Sequence record: MZ892903.1
Origin: Escherichia phage ELT1
Strand: one strand, 5' to 3'
Length of the DNA stretch: 64,000 bases
Shown: in pieces, positions 18,235 to 57,235 of the stretch
How the letters are laid out: each line of letters starts with the position of its first letter
How positions within the stretch are numbered: the stretch's first letter is position 1
The notes under the pieces: model-generated
Database searches by the model: none
Seen by the model: only the letters and a program-made list of their open reading frames with translations
Told to the model about the DNA's origin: nothing
Position numbers and translations under genes: made by a program

Positions 18235-18836
18235 TTATAGATTAAATCCTTCAAAATCAAGAGTATAGATAGTGTATGTTGAATACTTTTTATACTCATA
18301 TCTATCCGCAATTCTAAATACACTTCCAGCTGGTATCATTACTTCTTGTTCATCTGAAACTAATTCCATATTACGATAACGATGGCTATCTGGAAACTTA
18401 AAACTCGGACTATATTCTTTACAGCGTAGAGCTTTTATAGCATACTCCTGGAAATTAAACACCATAGGAGCTTTGAATTCAAAAATAACTTGTGTGTTAT
18501 ACTCTAAACCGGAAGCAAAATGTAGAGCTATATTTTTATCATATGAAGCTGATACTACTTTATCAAATGTAATAATATCAATTCCTTGATTTAACACCTG
18601 CTTAGTCTCAGCTGGAACACCTCTCCAAAGAGGTTTATCGTTTGGTTCCAAACGAGATTTGATTATTTCATTTAACCAAGTAGGTCATCTGGTTTATTAG
18701 TAATACAATGAATTAAAAGTTCAATTTCAGATAAATTAAATCCTTCAGAAAGTAATTCTTCACGAATAGAAGCACGCACCGATGCATCCATTGATTTTAT
18801 TTTAAAATCTTTTAGTTGCATTACTGAGTATTTCAT
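18235..18836 (-). pseudogene. modA: modA ADP-ribosyltransferase, split by a -1 frameshift near 18681-18686
   Basis: 5' ORF 18672-18836 MKYSVMQLKDFKIK...NKPDDLLG-stop; 3' ORF 18235-18651 carries ART motifs LWRG, SAS, EQEV; frames join to exactly 200 aa if one base is restored. Confidence 0.55.
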
Positions 18837-21352: not shown

Positions 21353-21557
21353 TACAAAAAGCCTCTCTTAAATTCAACTTGCTTTTCGCCATAATCATAT
21401 CGAATCTCTGCATTAAATTCGACAGAACCATCTGCGTACATCATAAATGAATGCACAACAACTTCTGTAGACCATGGCTGTAGTTCATATTTTTCATTAC
21501 GTGTCGTGAAATGATAATATCTAAATCTTCATTCGGTTTAATCCAACGATTTAACAT
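21352..21557 (-). pseudogene. small gene in two frames (apparent -1 frameshift), ~68 codons if repaired
   Basis: ATG 21555-21557 with GAGGAG RBS gives 38 aa MLNRWIKPNEDLDIIISRH...; overlapping frame continues ...EKYELQPWSTEVVVHSFMMYADGSVEF... with no start. Confidence 0.3.
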
Positions 21558-28400: not shown

Positions 28401-28763
28401 TTAAAAGAATTTAAACTTTTTCTTTGACCTTTTATTGAATGCATCTTGTAGTTGCATTGTAATACATTTTTCTACATGAGGAGCTAACTCAGCTTTTCTT
28501 TCTTGGTCAAGAACAGCAAAGTCCATTACAACCTTTCCATCAACCCAATCTAATTTTGTCACATACACAATGTGTGTAGAACCATCTTCTAGTTTAATGA
28601 CAATCTCCTGGATAACATTTTCCATGGCAGATTTAATTATCTTAAGAGACTCATTAAAAAGACGTTCTTTTCTTTCTTCTTCCCCCTCCGAAGAGGGGGA
28701 TTCATCGATAATTTCTAGATCTAAGTCTAAATCATCTTTATTCATTAAATTCTTCCATATCAC
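28401..28763 (-). CDS. 40: gp40-like head vertex assembly protein, 120 aa
   Basis: length and position between uvsX and 41. Confidence 0.6.
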   Translation of the reverse strand: MIWKNLMNKDDLDLDLEIIDESPSSEGEEERKERLFNESLKIIKSAMENVIQEIVIKLEDGSTHIVYVTKLDWVDGKVVMDFAVLDQERKAELAPHVEKCITMQLQDAFNKRSKKKFKFF

Positions 28764-29385
28764 TTAACTGCTCGAGGTCAGTTTCTAAATCAGCAGCTGA
28801 TTTACTTTTACTTTCTGGAGATTTAAATTTTTCAACCTTTGAGTTAATCAATTCATCAACTTCAGCTTCAACAATTTCATTACTATCAATAGCACCTAAC
28901 TGATAAGCACGTTTAATAGCATCTCGGAATGGTTGATGCTTAAATAAAGGACCCCAGAATGTAGTGCAGTTGGTATCTTTTGCACGCCAAGATTTTTCTT
29001 CGCGAATCATCTCGCCGGTTTCTTCATCAAGAAATTCACGAGCATACCAGCCATTTTTTGGTTTTACTACAAATCCTAATTCTAGAGCCATATCTAACAA
29101 TCCAGAATAAGGATCGATACCACCGTCAAATTTAACATCAATAAAGAATTTACTTTTTTCTTTAACGGTACGAGATTTTTCTACATTTAGAACAAATTGA
29201 TACCCCTGAAGATCAGAACCATCTTTAATCTGACGCTTACCGATAATGAATACAGTATCAGCCGAATACATTACGCCTGTATTGTGTGTAACGATACCAT
29301 TTTCTAAAACATAATGCTCTACGTCAGCAACAGACAAATCATAGACTTCTTTTTTACCAACAGATTTAACAGATTTAATTTTCAT
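28738..29385 (-). CDS. uvsX: UvsX C-terminal piece: 35-aa C-intein fused to ~180-aa UvsX C-extein
   Basis: MKIKSVKSVGKKEVYDLSVADVEHYVLENGIVTHN then TGVMYSADTVFIIGKRQIKDG... (UvsX C-terminal half); own ATG with AAGG RBS. Confidence 0.85.
   Translation of the reverse strand: MKIKSVKSVGKKEVYDLSVADVEHYVLENGIVTHNTGVMYSADTVFIIGKRQIKDGSDLQGYQFVLNVEKSRTVKEKSKFFIDVKFDGGIDPYSGLLDMALELGFVVKPKNGWYAREFLDEETGEMIREEKSWRAKDTNCTTFWGPLFKHQPFRDAIKRAYQLGAIDSNEIVEAEVDELINSKVEKFKSPESKSKSAADLETDLEQLSDMEEFNE
29281..29385 (-). mobile_element. split intein C-fragment, 35 aa
   Basis: intein blocks F/G VYDLSV...H.Y..NGIVTHN followed by +1 Thr. Confidence 0.8.
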
Positions 29386-29417
29386 ACTTTACCTTGTGTT
29401 TCGTAGTAGCTAGTTTC

Positions 29418-29442
29418 AATATACATATTTCATGAAAGCATA
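29418..29442 (-). promoter_or_regulatory. middle-promoter-like element upstream of UvsX C-piece
   Basis: minus strand ATGCTTTCA (MotA-box-like), 12 nt, then TATATT. Confidence 0.35.
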
Positions 29443-29527
29443 ATCTTGATTGTCGCGTTCATTCCAAATTCTTTTACCATATCTTCGAATGTAGTGCGAA
29501 CCCGTAAAGAACTCGCATTGGAATGCC

Positions 29528-30250
29528 TTAACCACGTGCATCTACTGCATAAGCCCATCCTTTTGTGTTAGCTTTAATTTTGTTGATAATTGTGTTAGGA
29601 TTAATTCCCAGCGCTCTTGCAGCAGGTCTGACGCCCCGGTATTCAATACCGTTTATGATAACGCCTTTTTGTCTAGGATGAGAATGCTTTAATCTTTTCT
29701 TTGCTTTTTCTGATATTTCATTAATTGTTTCTTTGGTGTGTTTCTTACCATAGAACCCATTGTTTTCTCCTGTAATACCTTCTGATATGTGCTTACGGTG
29801 TTCATCAGAAGATTTCACGCCTTTTGTGACGCCAACATACACACCAGATTTAACAAGCGGATGGTTTCTTTCAAGACGAATACATTTACCTGTTATATGA
29901 TGCTTGTATGATGCAAAATCAGCATTAGCATATGAATTATGTCCACAAGCATAATCCAAATTAAAATAATCTGGATTTGTTTTAACGTTTACTTGTTTCT
30001 GATAGAAATTTTCGCGCTCTAGCAGTTTAGCATGTTTAATATCATCATATTGCTCCAGTATTTCAACAGTAACATTATTGATAAAATCATGATATCCGGG
30101 ATATCTCGATGAGCCATAGTACTCGCGACCACGGGCGTCAATAATCTTACCGTCTACATAAGAAGCATTTGTCTTGCTTCCTATGTAGTAATACGGCGGA
30201 GTGCCGTTTTTAATTCTATCGTTGAACACAATTTTATAGACAAAATTCAT
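29528..30250 (-). CDS. free-standing GIY-YIG homing endonuclease (Seg-like), 240 aa
   Basis: N-terminal FVYKIVF...YYYIGSK, NUMOD-like NGFYGKKHT, C-terminal helix-turn-helix-like tail; sits between the two uvsX pieces. Confidence 0.7.
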   Translation of the reverse strand: MNFVYKIVFNDRIKNGTPPYYYIGSKTNASYVDGKIIDARGREYYGSSRYPGYHDFINNVTVEILEQYDDIKHAKLLERENFYQKQVNVKTNPDYFNLDYACGHNSYANADFASYKHHITGKCIRLERNHPLVKSGVYVGVTKGVKSSDEHRKHISEGITGENNGFYGKKHTKETINEISEKAKKRLKHSHPRQKGVIINGIEYRGVRPAARALGINPNTIINKIKANTKGWAYAVDARG

Positions 30251-30253
30251 ATG

Positions 30254-30286
30254 GGTACCTCAAAAATATACATTAGTCCGGTACCC
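30254..30286 (-). promoter_or_regulatory. hairpin sequestering the RBS of the endonuclease gene
   Basis: inverted repeat GGGTACC (30254-30260) / GGTACCC (30280-30286); 3' arm covers GAGG just upstream of ATG 30248-30250. Confidence 0.45.
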
Positions 30287-30293
30287 ATATTTA

Positions 30294-31223
30294 TTACCTT
30301 ACAACACAATCCATTCCAGCTACTAAATCTTTAGCTTCAACCCAAGTTGGAATGTCTTTAACCATTACCAGGAACTTGTGGGTATCTGAAGTAGTTACTT
30401 TATAACCGTCTTCGAATTCAATTTCGAAACATTCAGGAGTACCTTCAGCCAGAGTTTCTGGGTCCCAAACATAAGTTACTTCATTATCACCGACCATGGT
30501 TTTAACACGTTCACCTGGACGAATATCTTCAACTGCTTTAGTAGAACCATCGGACATCTGGATTTTAGTACCAGCAATAACACAACCACCTGTCATCACG
30601 GTTTTACTAAACAGTTCAATTGTTTCAATTGTATGGTTAACCGCAACACACGGAATGTTTTTAATACTAAAATAAGGAGTAACAATACGGAATAATGACT
30701 TCAGTGATTTAGCACGAGTCATATCTGCCACAGATTTTTCATTCAAGGCATCTTCCGTTTCTTTCTTAGAAGCCATATTACCAATTGAGTCAATGAATAC
30801 AATAACTTTTTCACCACGCTCAATAGCTTCAAGCTGATTCACCATATCAATTTTCAGCTGTTCAACTGACTGAATTGGTGTATGAATTACTCGTTCCGGG
30901 TCAACTCCCATGGATCGCAAATAAGCTGGAGTAATACCAAATTCGCTATCATAGAATAGACAAACCGCGTCAGGATATTTGTTCAAATACGCCGCAACCA
31001 TAGTCAAAGACATATTTGATTTAAAGTGTTTAGAAGGACCTGCAAAAATGGTTAAACCAGACTGCATACCACCATCAATCGCACCAGAAATAGCGATATT
31101 AAGCATTGGGATTTTTGTACGGATTACATCCTTTTCATTAAAGAATTTAGATGTAGTCAGTTCAGCAGTCATTTTAGAAGTGGAAGCTTTAATTAAACGG
31201 GATTTTAAATCTGCAATAGACAT
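30294..31223 (-). CDS. uvsX: UvsX N-terminal piece: ~213-aa N-extein fused to 96-aa N-intein
   Basis: MSIADLKSRLIKAS..., Walker A GPSKHFKS, ...KTVMTGG then CVIAGTKIQ...TTSDTHKF...MDCVVR-stop. Confidence 0.85.
   Translation of the reverse strand: MSIADLKSRLIKASTSKMTAELTTSKFFNEKDVIRTKIPMLNIAISGAIDGGMQSGLTIFAGPSKHFKSNMSLTMVAAYLNKYPDAVCLFYDSEFGITPAYLRSMGVDPERVIHTPIQSVEQLKIDMVNQLEAIERGEKVIVFIDSIGNMASKKETEDALNEKSVADMTRAKSLKSLFRIVTPYFSIKNIPCVAVNHTIETIELFSKTVMTGGCVIAGTKIQMSDGSTKAVEDIRPGERVKTMVGDNEVTYVWDPETLAEGTPECFEIEFEDGYKVTTSDTHKFLVMVKDIPTWVEAKDLVAGMDCVVR
30297..30584 (-). mobile_element. split intein N-fragment, 96 aa
   Basis: intein block A CVIAGTKI and block B TTSDTHKFLV; ends at in-frame TAA. 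Confidence 0.8.
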
Positions 31224-31300: not shown

Positions 31301-32143
31301 TTAATCAACTGCTATTGGATGAATAGCATTAAACTTATGAAATGCTTCTGATTTTTCTTTACGCGAAACACACATGCGAAGAACCTTTAGTGGTTCATCT
31401 TCTTCACCCAACGATTTTCGTTTTTCAATATTTGAAGTTTTCCAACGAGCTTGCTCTGGAAACTCTCTATTGATTTGCTCAAGCGCTCTATTATGTTTAG
31501 AATTACTACGAATTGAACTACATCCACCGGGAGCGTGTGATTTTCCAGATACAACTAGATATTTGAACAAGGCCAAATGCGGATAACCTTGATTAATTAA
31601 ATTGAGAAATGCATACATATCTTCGCATAAATCAATTTTTCCATACCCAATTTGTTCTGTCGTAAGTTTTCCGAGGTCATACCATGTATTCGTGAATCCA
31701 TATGAGTTTTCACGATAATTACCCCAAGATGAAGTAATTTTAAAAATTGGTAGACGAGCATGGCCATGATAATACCCACAATCCATGGCATCTTCAACGT
31801 ATTGAATCAATTCATAGAACTGTTCACGAGTTAATTGATTAATTTTATCTACACGCCGTTTATCGTCTCTCTTTCGTATTGAACTCATACGAATAGTAGT
31901 ATCATCATCAATCATCCAGATTCGTTGACCTGCATACATATCAGTAATTGCTTTACGAGTACCGGCAATTCCATTAACATCATCAGGAATAGTTACAATT
32001 TTAGCTCTAGACCCATAAGCATCATAATAAGCTTTTTCTTCGTGTTCACGCACTACAATATGGGGTTCATAATCAGTCGGAAACATATTAAGGGCAGAAA
32101 CTGCCCCTACACGCTGATAACTTGGAATTACGAATTGAATCAT
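31301..32143 (-). CDS. putative glycosyltransferase (GT-A-like, DxD), 280 aa, in the position of T4 b-gt
   Basis: WMIDDD motif; unlike the recalled 351-aa T4 beta-glucosyltransferase. Confidence 0.55.
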   Translation of the reverse strand: MIQFVIPSYQRVGAVSALNMFPTDYEPHIVVREHEEKAYYDAYGSRAKIVTIPDDVNGIAGTRKAITDMYAGQRIWMIDDDTTIRMSSIRKRDDKRRVDKINQLTREQFYELIQYVEDAMDCGYYHGHARLPIFKITSSWGNYRENSYGFTNTWYDLGKLTTEQIGYGKIDLCEDMYAFLNLINQGYPHLALFKYLVVSGKSHAPGGCSSIRSNSKHNRALEQINREFPEQARWKTSNIEKRKSLGEEDEPLKVLRMCVSRKEKSEAFHKFNAIHPIAVD

Positions 32144-32781
32144 TTAAGTGCCTTACATTTGTCAAAATGGTATCTTGTCATATTTGGCCCACGTCCTTTT
32201 AGTCCGCAATGCGGACATATTTTTTCTATCAAATTATGAGGTTTTCCTTTACGATTTTTAGACATCGTTTCTTTAATTATTTTAGCTTTTTCTACGCCAA
32301 AAATTTCTTCATAAGTTTTACCAGAATTTTCCTTGGCTCGATTTATAATTCCATATGCCTGCTCATTTTTACCATACATTGGATTACCTTCGCCTTTCAT
32401 TCTTTTAGAATGATCAGGACGCTTGATTCCACGAAAGGCATTTCCGCACTTATATCTTTCTTCTGGAGATAGTTTTTTACCGTACATTCCATTTAATTTG
32501 CCTGGAAAACTTCCTCCCCATGCTTCATTCTTTAAATTATATGAATCCGGACAATTAGCAGCATCTAAACAAGTTAAAATAATTTCTTCAACCTGTCTAA
32601 ACATTGGTCCTTCATATAATATTTCTTTATTAAAGGATTTTATTCCATATTTCTTTTTAGCATGTTGCCAAACTACACCCGAACCATCATAATTCGGGTT
32701 GTGACCATCATGACTTCCTATATACCACTTTTTAGTTTTAGGATGTTTATACTTATAAACATGTGGCACATTTACTTCCAT
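32140..32781 (-). CDS. GIY-YIG homing endonuclease (Seg-like), 213 aa
   Basis: HVYKYKHPKTKKWYIGS, NUMOD-like NGMYGKK and NPMYGKN, C-terminal CPHCG zinc finger. Confidence 0.65.
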   Translation of the reverse strand: MEVNVPHVYKYKHPKTKKWYIGSHDGHNPNYDGSGVVWQHAKKKYGIKSFNKEILYEGPMFRQVEEIILTCLDAANCPDSYNLKNEAWGGSFPGKLNGMYGKKLSPEERYKCGNAFRGIKRPDHSKRMKGEGNPMYGKNEQAYGIINRAKENSGKTYEEIFGVEKAKIIKETMSKNRKGKPHNLIEKICPHCGLKGRGPNMTRYHFDKCKALK

Positions 32782-40860: not shown

Positions 40861-42543
40861 TTAAACCATTACAGTAAATCGACCGACTTTCTTCATTTGA
40901 AGATGCTGACCATATTCTTGTGGGTCATGGTCTTTATGCGAAATTATAAAAACATTAGTGTTTTTCATTGAATTTATAATATTAGCTACACCTTTAATAC
41001 CTTCGGCATCAAATGACCCATCAAACACTTCATCAAGAATTAATGTACTAATACTAACACCAGATACGATAGAAGCAATATCACGCCAAGTAAATAAAAG
41101 AGCAATATCAATTCTTGCCTTTTCACCTTCACTAAATGAAGCATAACTAAAATCTTCACGACCACGGGATTTAATTGTCTCATTAAATTCTTCATCTAAT
41201 GTAAACACATAATCCGCTTCCATTATTTTAAGATAATGGTTAATCTGCTTATTAAATAATGGAATGTACTTTTTAATAATAGCACCTTTAATACCAGAAT
41301 CTTTGAGCATATCAGTCAAAATTCCTCGGTGGTATTTTTCCATTACTAAATTAGTTTTTGTCTTAACAATTTTATCAAGTTCTTCTTGAAGCAGTGCTAT
41401 TTCATCAGCATGGTCAATAAACTCAGAAGATGCTTTTTCTATAGCCGCTTTAACCTTTTTAGCTTTATCTACTGCTGCGATCAGAGATTGCTTTTTATTG
41501 CGAATATCATTTGCCAACGACTGTTGGGTTTTAATATTATCTCGGTATTCATCAACAAGAACTTTTAAATTATCACGATGTGTTGAAAGCTGTTCAAACG
41601 AATGCGTACATTCAGAAACTTTATCTTTAATTTTAGAAACAACTTTATCACCGGAACTTAATTGTGACAAACAGGTTGGACATAATCCACCTTCGTGATA
41701 CATATTAATGACTTTATTATACGAGTCAATTTTTGATTTAATTAAAACTGCTTCTTGACCGATTTTATTAAATGCATCAGTCGGGTCTTCATCTAAAACA
41801 ATATTAACTAATCTTTCGTTAGCTTCTTCTATTTCCGATTTTAGCGTTCTAGCTTCTTTTGCCAAATCATCATACATATTTTGAAGACGAGTAAGATTGT
41901 CACCAGACAATTTTTTCTGGCGTTCAACATTATCGTTATATATTTTAATTTGTTGGATAATACTATCTTTTTTAACATCAAGCACTTGGTTTTGTGAGTT
42001 TAATTCACGTATTAGTGCTTTATTAAGCTTATCCATTTCAGCTAATGTTCCTACCTCAAGCAGGTCTTCCACAAGCTTTCTTCGCGCAGGGGTCGACAAA
42101 CCCATGAAAGGGGTATACCCTGCTGTACCAAGGACAACAATCTGCTTGAAACTGACATATGACATTCCGATAAGCTGTTCAAATTCTGCTTGGAAATCTT
42201 TACTGCTGGCAGATTCATTAAGACGTGTACCGTTAACGGTGATTTCAAAAACGTTCGGTTTTTGTCCTCTTTTGATATAGTACTTTTTCTCATCATATTC
42301 CATCCACAGTTCAACTAAAAGTTCTTTCTTATTTGTGCTGTTTATTAATTGACCTTTCTTTACATCGCGAAATGGCTTGCCAAAAAGCCCAAATGTGATG
42401 GCTTCTAACATAGTAGACTTACCACCGCCATTTCGTCCAGTAATAAGAGTTTTTTGAACCTTATCTAATTGAATGTCAACTCCATTTTGACCAACTGACA
42501 TTATATTTTTATATTTTACTCTATTAAGTTTAAAATTCTTCAC
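40861..42543 (-). CDS. 46: recombination nuclease subunit (Rad50/SbcC-like), 560 aa
   Basis: Walker A GRNGGGKST, coiled-coil middle; matches recalled T4 gp46. Confidence 0.95.
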   Translation of the reverse strand: MKNFKLNRVKYKNIMSVGQNGVDIQLDKVQKTLITGRNGGGKSTMLEAITFGLFGKPFRDVKKGQLINSTNKKELLVELWMEYDEKKYYIKRGQKPNVFEITVNGTRLNESASSKDFQAEFEQLIGMSYVSFKQIVVLGTAGYTPFMGLSTPARRKLVEDLLEVGTLAEMDKLNKALIRELNSQNQVLDVKKDSIIQQIKIYNDNVERQKKLSGDNLTRLQNMYDDLAKEARTLKSEIEEANERLVNIVLDEDPTDAFNKIGQEAVLIKSKIDSYNKVINMYHEGGLCPTCLSQLSSGDKVVSKIKDKVSECTHSFEQLSTHRDNLKVLVDEYRDNIKTQQSLANDIRNKKQSLIAAVDKAKKVKAAIEKASSEFIDHADEIALLQEELDKIVKTKTNLVMEKYHRGILTDMLKDSGIKGAIIKKYIPLFNKQINHYLKIMEADYVFTLDEEFNETIKSRGREDFSYASFSEGEKARIDIALLFTWRDIASIVSGVSISTLILDEVFDGSFDAEGIKGVANIINSMKNTNVFIISHKDHDPQEYGQHLQMKKVGRFTVMV

Positions 42544-42803
42544 AAAAGATTCCTTTTAATGTATCTTTTAGACCATTCTATCATATCATCATAATCTAAA
42601 AAGTATTCATCAAATTCAGCCATGCAAACAACACCTTGTGCTGTTTTTGATGTAATATAAATTATTCCAACATATCTAGAATCTTCTTCGATATAATCAA
42701 TATTTGCTATGAATTCATCATTAATGTCAAATGTCGAAAACTTCACAGTATGCATCCTTAATACAAGATACAGCCATATCTTGTAATGATTTAGGTGTGT
42801 CAT
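42540..42803 (-). CDS. hypothetical protein, 87 aa
   Basis: ORF track; begins inside another frame of the upstream region. Confidence 0.45.
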   Translation of the reverse strand: MTHLNHYKIWLYLVLRMHTVKFSTFDINDEFIANIDYIEEDSRYVGIIYITSKTAQGVVCMAEFDEYFLDYDDMIEWSKRYIKRNLL

Positions 42804-42989
42804 TATCTAAAATGTTGAAGTTAAAAGATACAGCCCAGTCAGTGCAGACTGTGACCTTTTTAATACAATTATCTTCAACCTCTAGTGGTTCAAACCAGTA
42901 TTCAATAATTTCTTTATGCCCATATCATCTTTTACTTCACATTCAAAATGCTGACTCATCATAACATTTTTAAATTCATCAAAAGTCAT
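42721..42989 (-). pseudogene. small gene between 47 and 46 read in successive frames (apparent frameshifts)
   Basis: ATG 42987-42989 gives 35 aa MTFDEFKNVMMSQHFECEVKDDMG...; -1 frame continues HKEIIEYWFEPLEVEDNCIKK...AYCEVFDI with no start; GACATTTGACATT direct repeat at the next frame change. Confidence 0.3.
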
Positions 42990-44005
42990 TGTGTTGCCTC
43001 TACATATAGCTGGTTTGCATATTGAATAAGTGCTTCACGGTCAGAATCAGTGATGTCTGGAATTGCATTAATGTATTCTTCCATCAACGTCTGAAGAGAT
43101 TGAACTTCAACTTCTTCACTGTCATCTGACTCGACAGAGTTATCAATCTTTGACACAACTCGTAATGAATGCACAACTTTTTCTAGTTCAGATTCGAACT
43201 TCGTCAGATTTTTGTCTACTTCAGTTACTATAACACGTACTGATAGATTTGTAAAATCTTTATAGTCAATTTTTCCTTTAAATGGATAATGAATTCTACG
43301 ATGCCAAGTAGTATTGTTTGGAATAAATTCCATTCGTTCTGTTTCTGTATCAAACATCCAGAACCCACGAGGGTCATTCTCGTCACCTGCAGTTAGTGTC
43401 CATGGTGTCCCAATATATCTGACGTTAGCAGCCTCAGAGATAGTATGGAAGTGACCAGACCACACTTCTTTATAAGTCTTAAGGAAATCAGGTTCAAGAC
43501 CGTGAGATTTCATTCCTTTATAAAAATAAAATCCATTCAGTTCCCAGTGACCAACACAAAAAGAAGCAGATGAAGTTTTGATGTGCTCAAGAATTTCACC
43601 AGTATTTTCTTCGCACATCCAAGGAATTAAATCAATCAAACATCCGTCAAAATCTACTGTAGTAGGCTTATCATATACTTTAACATTAGGATATTTAGCC
43701 AAAAGCTCAGTAGAGGCATTTGGAGTTAAAGTATTTTTAAAGTGCATATCATGGTTTCCTACAACAGTATGTAGGGTAATACCAGCATCATCAAGCATTT
43801 GAACTATTTCACGAGCGAACTCCATAGTTTTATGCGTGATTGCTTTTCGCACATCAAAAATATCGCCATATTGAATCCAGGTAGTAATTCCATTTTTCTT
43901 AGAATATTCTATTGCTTGTTTAATTCCATCCAACTGAATGGATTGAACCCACTCATCATCGGCTTTAACGCCTAAATGCCAATCACCTAAATTTAAAATT
44001 TTCAT
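42986..44005 (-). CDS. 47: recombination nuclease subunit (Mre11/SbcD-like), 339 aa
   Basis: phosphoesterase motifs GDWHLG and GNHD; matches recalled T4 gp47. Confidence 0.95.
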   Translation of the reverse strand: MKILNLGDWHLGVKADDEWVQSIQLDGIKQAIEYSKKNGITTWIQYGDIFDVRKAITHKTMEFAREIVQMLDDAGITLHTVVGNHDMHFKNTLTPNASTELLAKYPNVKVYDKPTTVDFDGCLIDLIPWMCEENTGEILEHIKTSSASFCVGHWELNGFYFYKGMKSHGLEPDFLKTYKEVWSGHFHTISEAANVRYIGTPWTLTAGDENDPRGFWMFDTETERMEFIPNNTTWHRRIHYPFKGKIDYKDFTNLSVRVIVTEVDKNLTKFESELEKVVHSLRVVSKIDNSVESDDSEEVEVQSLQTLMEEYINAIPDITDSDREALIQYANQLYVEATQ

Positions 44006-45434: not shown

Positions 45435-45455
45435 TATAGGAGCCGAAGCTCCTAT
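45435..45455 (-). terminator. terminator-like hairpin
   Basis: ATAGGAGC-CGAA-GCTCCTAT. Confidence 0.45.
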
Positions 45456-45628
45456 CCGCATAATACGCCATACAAAGGCTCGTTAGAGCTTCTAAATTTT
45501 TATGCGCTTATATGTTATAGTTCCTTCTGCTTTAGCTTTATCGTAAGACTCTTTAAAGCGTCTCATCATTTCTACTTTAGAGGAACGAATTTTATTATAA
45601 TCTATTTCAGAAGTCTGGTGTTCATCTT

Positions 45629-45835
45629 TCATAACTGCCACCATTTTTTGACTTGATAAGAATCAACCCACACTTTCATATTAGGGTCTGCTCTTACAAT
45701 AGGAGGATTAACTTCTTTAATTGAACTATCATGGTATTCTTTTTCAGAAATTTTCACGCAAAGATGACCGTTCAAAGATTCAGTAAATCCTGCATTAATT
45801 TTAAGACGCTTGAATTTTACGTGTGTAAGCATCAA
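45629..45835 (-). CDS. hypothetical protein, 68 aa
   Basis: ORF track. Confidence 0.4.
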   Translation of the reverse strand: MMLTHVKFKRLKINAGFTESLNGHLCVKISEKEYHDSSIKEVNPPIVRADPNMKVWVDSYQVKKWWQL

Positions 45836-48695: not shown

Positions 48696-48765
48696 GTGAA
48701 AATATTTTAGGGAATGATAAGAAAGGAACGATAGCTTAGAATGGTAATATACAGAATGTAAGAAA

Positions 48766-56007: not shown

Positions 56008-56308
56008 TTTCTTCTCGGTCAAATCGGTGTTTACAATGACGACATTTATAACGAAGATTACTAGTCTGCCAATGGACCAATTGCACCTGTTCAGTTCCAC
56101 ATTCAGGGCAATTAGGAACGTTTTTAGAAGCCCTTTCACGACGTTCAACCATAACCATTACAGAATCCCAATTAACAGGAGGGCTATAATCATCACAACC
56201 ATGAATCTTTCCACGCATTTCCAGATCGTCTTCTTCACCAGCCATAATAATTTTAATTAGACTAGAATTACTTGAAGCTGCAATGTCTTCTAATAGACGC
56301 TTTTTCAT
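55994..56308 (-). CDS. zinc-ribbon protein, 104 aa
   Basis: CPECG...CRHC. Confidence 0.45.
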
Positions 56309-56655
56309 TTCAATACCTCAATAGCATTGCGTAAACCATTTGCTTTTGCATTAAGAGCTTTTAACAATTTGGTGTGTTCTGCAATTTGGGCTTCAACTTC
56401 AATCAAACGAGCATTGAGATATTCGCGTTCTTCACTCAGATTATCAGCCTTTTCTGCTTTAGGTTCTTTTACAACTTGCTTATATGTATTAGGGTTCTTC
56501 AGTTTAATTAGAATGCGTGAACTGTACAGCATTGAACCATTATCTTCGGTTTCGTCATACATTTCCACTACGTCCATCATCTCCACCATCGTGCAGAGTT
56601 TATAAGACAACGAACGAATAATTTTGTTGTGCTTATTAATTTCTCTAGCTGTCAT
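56305..56655 (-). CDS. hypothetical protein, 116 aa
   Basis: ORF track. Confidence 0.45.
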   Translation of the reverse strand: MTAREINKHNKIIRSLSYKLCTMVEMMDVVEMYDETEDNGSMLYSSRILIKLKNPNTYKQVVKEPKAEKADNLSEEREYLNARLIEVEAQIAEHTKLLKALNAKANGLRNAIEVLK

Positions 56656-56695
56656 GGTGCCGAGATTACGTGAGTAATAATAAGGAACCTGGATA

Positions 56696-57235
56696 TTAAT
56701 TAATTAATACTGATGAACCACCTGGCTTGTGTGTTACTTCATCAGCAATAACCCAATCCTTAACATGAACTGTATTTGTACGGTCATCGCCCGCGGTAAA
56801 TAGTTTACGAGCATGCTTAAAAAGCATATTCACTTGGTCATTGAATTGACAAGCGAATTTATCAGCAAATTTAGTTTCGGGAATGGTAGATAACCAATCA
56901 GCCAAATGGGTCTTTTTAACATCGTTAACAATAGTAAATTCAACCAAATCGGTTATAGATGTCGCAGTTTTAATGAATCTCGGCTTCATAAAGTTTTTAA
57001 TGTTATCGCGAGCTACAGTAGAAGATAACATACGAGAACGTTTAAACCATTCAAGTAAATTGCCTAACGAATGAGAATAAGCGTTCTGAGTATCTTTACA
57101 GATATGATTTTCCTGGCCAACATACTGAAGGAAATCACGAAGAATATTATTGATTACTGCTCTGTGTCCTATCTGATAATCACGATGTTTAGTAATAAGA
57201 CTGTCAAAATAATCAATATAATGTTTACGAGTCAT
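56696..57235 (-). CDS. hypothetical protein, ~179 aa
   Basis: ORF 56696-57265 trimmed to MTRKHYIDYF... Confidence 0.45.
   Translation of the reverse strand: MTRKHYIDYFDSLITKHRDYQIGHRAVINNILRDFLQYVGQENHICKDTQNAYSHSLGNLLEWFKRSRMLSSTVARDNIKNFMKPRFIKTATSITDLVEFTIVNDVKKTHLADWLSTIPETKFADKFACQFNDQVNMLFKHARKLFTAGDDRTNTVHVKDWVIADEVTHKPGGSSVLIN

Follow-up and report, generated by a model that had tools for sequence, protein, structure and literature searches.

Gene order and layout of the 46.2/46.1 locus

The 64,000-nt stretch of Escherichia phage ELT1 DNA analysed here (MZ892903.1, in the following termed the window) belongs to a T4-like phage (Tequatrovirus), and the region around the locus described in this study aligns with over 500 Tequatrovirus records at 97-98% identity. 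A tblastn comparison with 82 T4 proteins yields the order of the T4 early genes on the minus strand, i.e. a-gt, 47.1, 47, 46.2, 46.1, 46, 45.2, rpbA and 45 onwards, placing the two small genes 46.2 and 46.1 on the minus strand between gene 47 and gene 46. Gene 47 (42986..44005, minus strand; ORF list and tblastn) encodes gp47, the Mre11/SbcD-like nuclease subunit of 339 aa. Residues 1-339 of T4 gp47 are covered at 96.5% identity, and a gp47 protein identical to that of the window is encoded on many public contigs. Gene 46 (40861..42543, minus strand; ORF list) starts with GTG and encodes gp46, the Rad50/SbcC-like ATPase of 560 aa, which is 99.3% identical to T4 gp46 according to tblastn.

The ATG of 46.2 overlaps the TGA stop codon of gene 47 as ATGA (42989-42986), a layout common to T4, phage 55 and Bp7, and direct reading of the sequence reveals a Shine-Dalgarno motif, GAGG (42997..43000, minus strand), 7 nt 5' of the ATG at 42989. 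From here 46.2 is found in two segments. The 5' segment (42882..42989, minus strand) is listed as an ORF of 35 codons followed by TAG (MTFDEF...LNH*) and corresponds to gp46.2 residues 1-29 in tblastn, and the 3' segment (42727..42921, minus strand; YGHKEIIEYW...CEVFDI*) comprises residues 24-87 and the TGA at 42729-42727, being covered at 98.4% identity by T4 gp46.2 (tblastn). The latter lies in the -1 frame relative to the gene's own start and has no usable start codon.

Gene 46.1 (42540..42746, minus strand), assigned by T4 annotation, tblastn, Pfam and PHROG, is intact and encodes 68 aa from a GTG start at 42746-42744 to a stop codon at 42542-42540; T4 residues 1-68 are covered without gaps at 98.5% identity (tblastn). 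Its Shine-Dalgarno motif, AAGGA (42755..42759, minus strand), ends 8 nt before the start codon and is formed by the codons for Lys-Asp in CIKDAY, a conserved motif of gp46.2, and the 46.1 stop codon overlaps the GTG of gene 46 as GTGA. The stop codon of 46.2 is spanned by a 13-mer direct repeat, GACATTTGACATT (42723..42735, minus strand), which was located in the sequence and in the alignments. The ORF list additionally holds an ORF of 87 codons (42540..42803, minus strand), which we do not regard as a gene: it is a mechanical extension, the conserved 46.1 starting at GTG 42746.

In the T4 annotation, 46.2 has 264 nt (87 aa, MTFDEF...CEVFDI) and 46.1 has 207 nt (68 aa, GTG start), and the two overlap by 20 nt. 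The same layout is found in ESh25 and PhiZZ30, and the older T4 record X01804 names the two ORFs orf F and orfG, with the ribosome-binding sites marked. Thus, public T4 records, X01804 among them, already annotate the pair and its overlap, which are conserved across T-even genera. The region measures 702 nt in the relatives vs 701 nt in the window.

Both genes can be assigned to families. When the reading frame of 46.2 is repaired, its translation matches the Pfam family PF25721 (T4_Y03C) with 146 bits (cut-off 27) over profile positions 1-84 of 85 and phrog_2192 at 5.4e-48; a database homologue of 87 aa (P0001) shares 98% identity with it. In the window, 46.2 is not a single ORF of ~85-87 codons, as residues 1-29 are in one frame and residues 24-87 in another, i.e. 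it is a disrupted member of the T4_Y03C family, or a mis-assembled one. 46.1 matches PF17589 (DUF5487) with 164.7 bits (cut-off 27) over profile positions 1-66 of 66, and also phrog_2327.

A one-base deletion interrupts 46.2

At the first junction, alignments with relatives reveal that one T of a TT pair in codon 23 of 46.2 is missing (42921..42922, minus strand). The relatives read GATATTGG(G/T)CAT where the window has GATATGGGCAT, and this position is the only gap in a four-way alignment (GATATTGG in the relatives vs GATA-TGG in the window). Each aligned relative has one extra base at this site, and its 46.2 reads as one 87-aa ORF. The 1-nt deletion postulated for this junction in the original prediction is thus borne out, whereas the alternative given there, i.e. 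genuine overlapping small genes, does not apply to this junction, as relatives read 46.2 as one ORF. That prediction had also described a well-initiated ORF ending after 35 codons and a start-less frame continuing from there, both of which are present, but the three successive frames that it had counted are only two: the first and the third segment share a frame, so that the path runs from frame 1 to frame 3 and back to frame 1.

The deletion was searched for among phage records with a 91-nt query across the site. In none of the 456 matching records (INPHARED) is the deletion found; no match reaches >=99% identity, and all matches listed span 92 nt. The 12 loci that were fetched all carry GATATTGG, six of them encoding a gp47 identical to that of the window. 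Exact-pattern scans of IMG/VR, metagenome contigs and GTDB genome contigs did not return the deleted version, and the undeleted one is present in 3 IMG/VR contigs. Neither the 35-aa product nor that of the extended 87-aa ORF has an exact match on record. By comparison of sequences, the one-base deletion is thus private to the window.

Other frameshifts in the window

Further genes in the window are read in two frames. In modA (18238-18836, minus strand), a private 1-nt deletion at ~18683 changes AAGAATGG to AAGTA-GG and shifts the frame after ~51-52 codons; some alignments show an adjacent substitution, and 0 of 501 phage records share the deletion. mrh.2 (21355-21557, minus strand) has privately lost one C at ~21493 (ATATTTCTTC to ATATTT-TTC on the plus strand), which shifts the frame after ~22 codons and is shared by 0 of 379 phage records. 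In a-gt.2 (45455-45644, minus strand), a run of T is extended by one at ~45497-45501 (TTTT to TTTTT), and the last 14 codons are frameshifted; among 484 records Escherichia phage JEP6 alone shares this insertion, with 100% identity over 91 nt. This insertion is probably a real lineage-specific allele. Finally, T4 NrdC.3 is found in two frames in the nrdC.3 region (56308-57232, minus strand), as residues 3-186 and 179-308 at 55-61% identity, for which a further frameshift or a divergent two-gene layout may account.

Mutation or assembly error

The missing T may reflect a true mutation or a sequencing or assembly error, i.e. an indel in the consensus of a phage that has an intact 87-aa 46.2. We lean towards a real null allele, which we consider, on balance, probable, over the assembly error, which we regard as quite possible.

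Several observations point to an error. The deletion is unique in comparison with the 456 phage records and all collections scanned, and 46.2 lies intact beside gp47 in all phages that encode a gp47 identical to that of the window. Moreover, modA and mrh.2, in the same 64-kb window, are likewise each broken by a private 1-nt deletion, and modA, mrh.2 and 46.2 are intact in about 380-500 relatives each. Long homopolymers, where natural slippage usually occurs, are not the site of any of the three deletions, and three private, gene-breaking 1-nt deletions in 64 kb are what incomplete indel polishing would also give. Additionally, an intergenic homopolymer at 48699 carries a private A5-to-A4 change, so that all of these private changes are deletions. 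Deletions are the commonest residual error of long-read consensus sequences, and nanopore base-calling is difficult on the DNA of T-even phages, which contains glucosyl-hydroxymethylcytosine.

Other observations, however, argue against an error. Among the substitutions in conserved genes that are private to the window, 85 are synonymous and 17 nonsynonymous (83% synonymous), the latter being mostly conservative, and the sequence may therefore be taken as natural and accurate at base level. tblastn detects no frameshift in ~18 kb of large genes (43, rIIA, 46, 39, 41, dda, a-gt and 47); none of the large or essential genes tested is broken, and private frameshifts are confined to small accessory genes. 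Of the private indels, about half fall between genes, in a region that is ~94% coding, and such an intergenic excess is the pattern expected after selection. Finally, the +1 insertion in a-gt.2 is also found in the independent record JEP6, and therefore at least some of the frameshifts in this lineage are real.

Predicted effect of the deletion on gp46.2 and gp46.1

If the phage DNA itself has lost the T at 42921/42922, translation from the 46.2 ATG would end after 35 codons. The encoded 35-codon product contains ~22 native gp46.2 residues, the remainder being out of frame. In the AF2 model, intact gp46.2 (pLDDT 84.9) has a helix (residues 3-9), four strands (15-20, 26-39, 42-50 and 55-59) and a second helix (66-82). 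The truncated peptide would keep only helix 1 and strand 1 of this predicted α-β4-α fold, and it would be a null product because it retains just the first helix and the first strand. In the remainder of 46.2, the first in-frame start codon is that of Met-72. Thus, we favour a true null allele of 46.2, although that the change exists in the DNA, that function is lost and that the phage tolerates this loss are all steps that we infer. The one observation that points to 46.2 being dispensable is its absence from Karamvirus.

The deletion might also affect the downstream gene. As ribosomes would stop ~135 nt upstream, 46.1 may lose translational coupling. Within the coding sequence of 46.2, a consensus scan suggests a weak hairpin of the terminator type followed by a T-rich tail (42830..42852, minus strand), ~30 nt downstream of the premature stop; the region folds no better than shuffled sequences do (z = -0.33). 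One may speculate that in this allele the hairpin (42852..42830) would be left uncovered by ribosomes, resulting in polarity. Structure at the start of 46.1 is not significant (z = -1.4), and a promoter scan gave background level.

Searches for folds and functions returned little for either protein. The AF2 models of gp46.2 (pLDDT 85) and gp46.1 (pLDDT 88) both contain a four-stranded β meander and a C-terminal helix. NCBIfam has no family for gp46.2 or gp46.1, a sequence search of the PDB gave nothing below E = 1 for the two, and no functional study of gp46.2 or gp46.1 was found in the literature. Foldseek against the PDB gave no convincing fold match (best E 0.13 and 0.06; none at E < 0.1 for gp46.2), and against BFVD it retrieved only uncharacterised phage homologues. 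For gp46.1 there are weak Foldseek hits to PUR repeat III and T7 gp1.2 (E 0.13-0.4, TM ~0.4). Paralogy of 46.2 and 46.1 is unsupported (hhalign probability 1.5%). A four-stranded meander followed by a helix is the topology of a PUR or Whirly-type half-domain, and one might imagine gp46.2 and gp46.1, encoded next to each other between the two nuclease genes, pairing as a small heterodimeric nucleic-acid-binding or inhibitor module that modulates gp46/gp47, but we consider this very improbable. If it were true, the window would represent a natural knock-out of 46.2 with 46.1 left alone.

Recoding is very unlikely

A gene read in two frames might still be expressed if ribosomes slipped into the -1 frame within the 39-nt overlap of the 46.2 frames, e.g. 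at A-AAG in ATA AAG AAA. At A-AAG, tRNA-Lys of E. coli is known to slip weakly into the -1 frame; the tetranucleotide lies in the zero frame inside the overlap, and a slip there would restore the downstream frame and give near-native full-length gp46.2, with DMGIKEII in place of DIGHKEII. However, the overlap, which runs from ATG GGC to CAC TAG, contains a lone A-AAG and no slippery heptamer of the type X XXY YYZ. The predicted downstream structure is not exceptional either, with an MFE of -18.4 kcal/mol vs a shuffle mean of -17.5 (z = -0.33), and in the folded stretch the first 23 nt, covering the slip site and a few nt after it, are unpaired. Moreover, the two-frame arrangement is seen in none of the 456 records and in none of the 12 loci fetched, and relatives read the same bases in another frame (CAT AAA GAA). 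As no relative has the two-frame arrangement, no signal could have been selected. Programmed frameshifting is thus very unlikely, and recoding as an explanation has, in our estimation, hardly any chance of being correct; low-level fortuitous slippage at A-AAG may occur and would give near-native protein.

The second junction is a normal gene overlap

The second junction, where 46.2 ends and 46.1 begins, is of a different nature. The start of 46.1 lies in the +1 frame relative to 46.2, inside the last codons of the latter, and in the window as well as in T4 it reads AAGGA-N8-GTG. The stop codon of 46.2 and the repeat GACATTTGACATT are identical in T4, ESh25, PhiZZ30 and 9 further loci. Because repeat and stop are identical in T4 and the close relatives examined, this junction is no lesion of the window, and the repeat is a conserved Tequatrovirus sequence. 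Other genera have the same arrangement. In Mosigvirus phage 55, AAGGA-N8-ATG is found at the same place and the overlap is 14 nt; in Dhakavirus Bp7, AAGGA-N8-ATG is likewise at the same place (648), the record annotating the next in-frame ATG (657) with an overlap of 8 nt; and in Gaprivervirus TH40, judged from the ORF translation and not from the DNA, the two ORFs again overlap and ATG starts stand at the corresponding position. Neither of the two junctions that were read, those of phage 55 and Bp7, contains the repeat. In the window, period-7 repeated 6-mers number 15 vs 31 +/- 6 in first-order Markov simulations; repeats of this kind are as frequent as expected by chance or rarer, and the one at the junction carries no signal.

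Thus, the second junction is a normal 20-nt overlap of two separate genes. The idea of genuine overlapping small genes, which does not hold for the first junction, is right for 46.2/46.1, given the T4 annotation and the same arrangement in other genera. Separate genes conserved in relatives, named in the original prediction as an observation that would refute a split gene, are found at this junction in T4, Mosigvirus, Dhakavirus and Gaprivervirus.

The split gene itself, i.e. one ancestral gene of ~150 aa (originally given as once continuous, with ~155 aa) that was divided by a 7-nt tandem duplication (GACATTT) and the 1-nt deletion, leaving 46.1 as an out-of-frame pseudogene tail, is the least probable reading. 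In its favour, removal of one GACATTT copy joins both frames in the sequence as ...EVFDINDEF..., and the fused translation matches both Pfam families end to end. The proposed 7-nt duplication, however, does not fit the relatives: repeat and stop are identical in all Tequatrovirus relatives examined, including those with intact genes, and three other genera keep both genes in the +1 relation with the start 8 nt after AAGGA (for TH40 from the translation only) and without the repeat at the junctions read (phage 55 and Bp7). Repeats of the type GACATTTGACATT also occur at chance frequency. The distance from the 46.1 start to the motif differs between T4 and Mosigvirus by whole codons, and a 7-nt insertion within 46.1 is therefore excluded. 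Either gene is also found on its own: in Karamvirus ZX13, the space from gene 47 to gene 46 holds 46.1 alone, and in Tequatrovirus F2 a MobD-like homing endonuclease comes after 46.2, with no 46.1. When the proteins are aligned, each of the two families is conserved across genera in stand-alone form.

The fused protein, which would have 147 aa, was not found either. It is absent from 5.8 billion clustered proteins, where a word-indexed search gave 4 hits, all single-domain, and from 1.84 billion representative proteins, where an exhaustive HMMER search returned only homologues of 86-87 aa, along with long, repetitive proteins whose multi-stretch matches seem spurious. In tblastn, a spread sample of rows across 763 matching phage records showed two pieces or one gene, and no fused ORF. 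The model of a single gene with a 7-nt duplication is thus refuted to the extent possible in silico.

Other features of the window

Some other regions of the window differ from T4. uvsX (28738-31223, minus strand) is 'fractured' into three ORFs. The N-terminal ORF (30294..31223, 309 aa) contains UvsX residues 1-233 followed by ~75 aa from GGC/VIAGTKIQ..., and this tail gives sub-threshold matches to the N-terminal part of Hint / Intein_splicing. In the C-terminal ORF (28738..29385, 215 aa), an intein C-terminal block comes first, ...GIVTHN/T, which covers positions 122-155 of 155 of the Intein_splicing profile, and UvsX residues 207-391 follow. Between the two lies a free-standing NUMOD3 homing-endonuclease gene (29528..30250, 240 aa). 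The arrangement resembles a split intein into which a homing endonuclease has been inserted, the 'fractured gene' type of Dassa et al. 2009 (PMC2677866), who do not have uvsX among the fractured genes listed. Phage HY03 has the 1.2-kb insert with 100% identity, and the insert is present in ~8 phage records, which annotate it only as 'homing endonuclease', 'DNA repair protein' and 'recombinase'.

T4 b-gt and segA have no counterparts at 31301-32781 (minus strand). In their place there is a 280-aa ORF that matches the Pfam family TAGT (TET-associated glycosyltransferase, E = 5e-10), together with a seg-like ORF of 213 aa that matches NUMOD3 weakly; this may be a DNA-glucosylation module different from that of T4.

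Implications and comparison with known systems

Taken together, the locus is an ordinary, already-annotated overlapping pair of T4 accessory genes, one of which carries a private single-base deletion. For annotation this means that the 35-codon ORF, the start-less frame and the 87-codon ORF are to be read as a disrupted 46.2 and a normal 68-aa 46.1 with a GTG start; to annotate three genes or one pseudogene would be wrong. A real deletion would make this a natural null allele and 46.2 a gene that a Tequatrovirus can do without. An artefactual one, together with the frameshifts in modA and mrh.2, would flag residual indel errors in the assembly.

The closest known counterparts are the T4 genes themselves. 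With T4 gene 46.2 (AAD42474), the window copy shares the position directly after gene 47, the ATGA overlap and a DNA that is 97-98% identical, but it lacks one T in codon 23 and is split over two frames. With T4 gene 46.1 (AAD42473), the 46.1 of the window shares the GTG start, the AAGGA motif, the 20-nt overlap with 46.2 and the GTGA overlap with gene 46, the sole difference being a private substitution of Thr19 by Ile.

A gene in two frames, the second of them start-less, also recalls programmed -1 frameshifting as in dnaX or the G/GT proteins of phage tail chaperones, but the window differs from these systems in having neither a heptamer nor a stimulatory structure nor conservation of the arrangement in relatives. 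The second junction, on the other hand, is an ordinary example of the overlapping and translationally coupled small early genes of T-even phages, such as 47/46.2 (ATGA) and 46.1/46 (GTGA): the start codon and the Shine-Dalgarno motif of the downstream gene lie inside the last codons of the upstream gene and are kept across four genera, with the difference that here, unlike in the intact allele, the upstream ribosomes would stop ~135 nt early.
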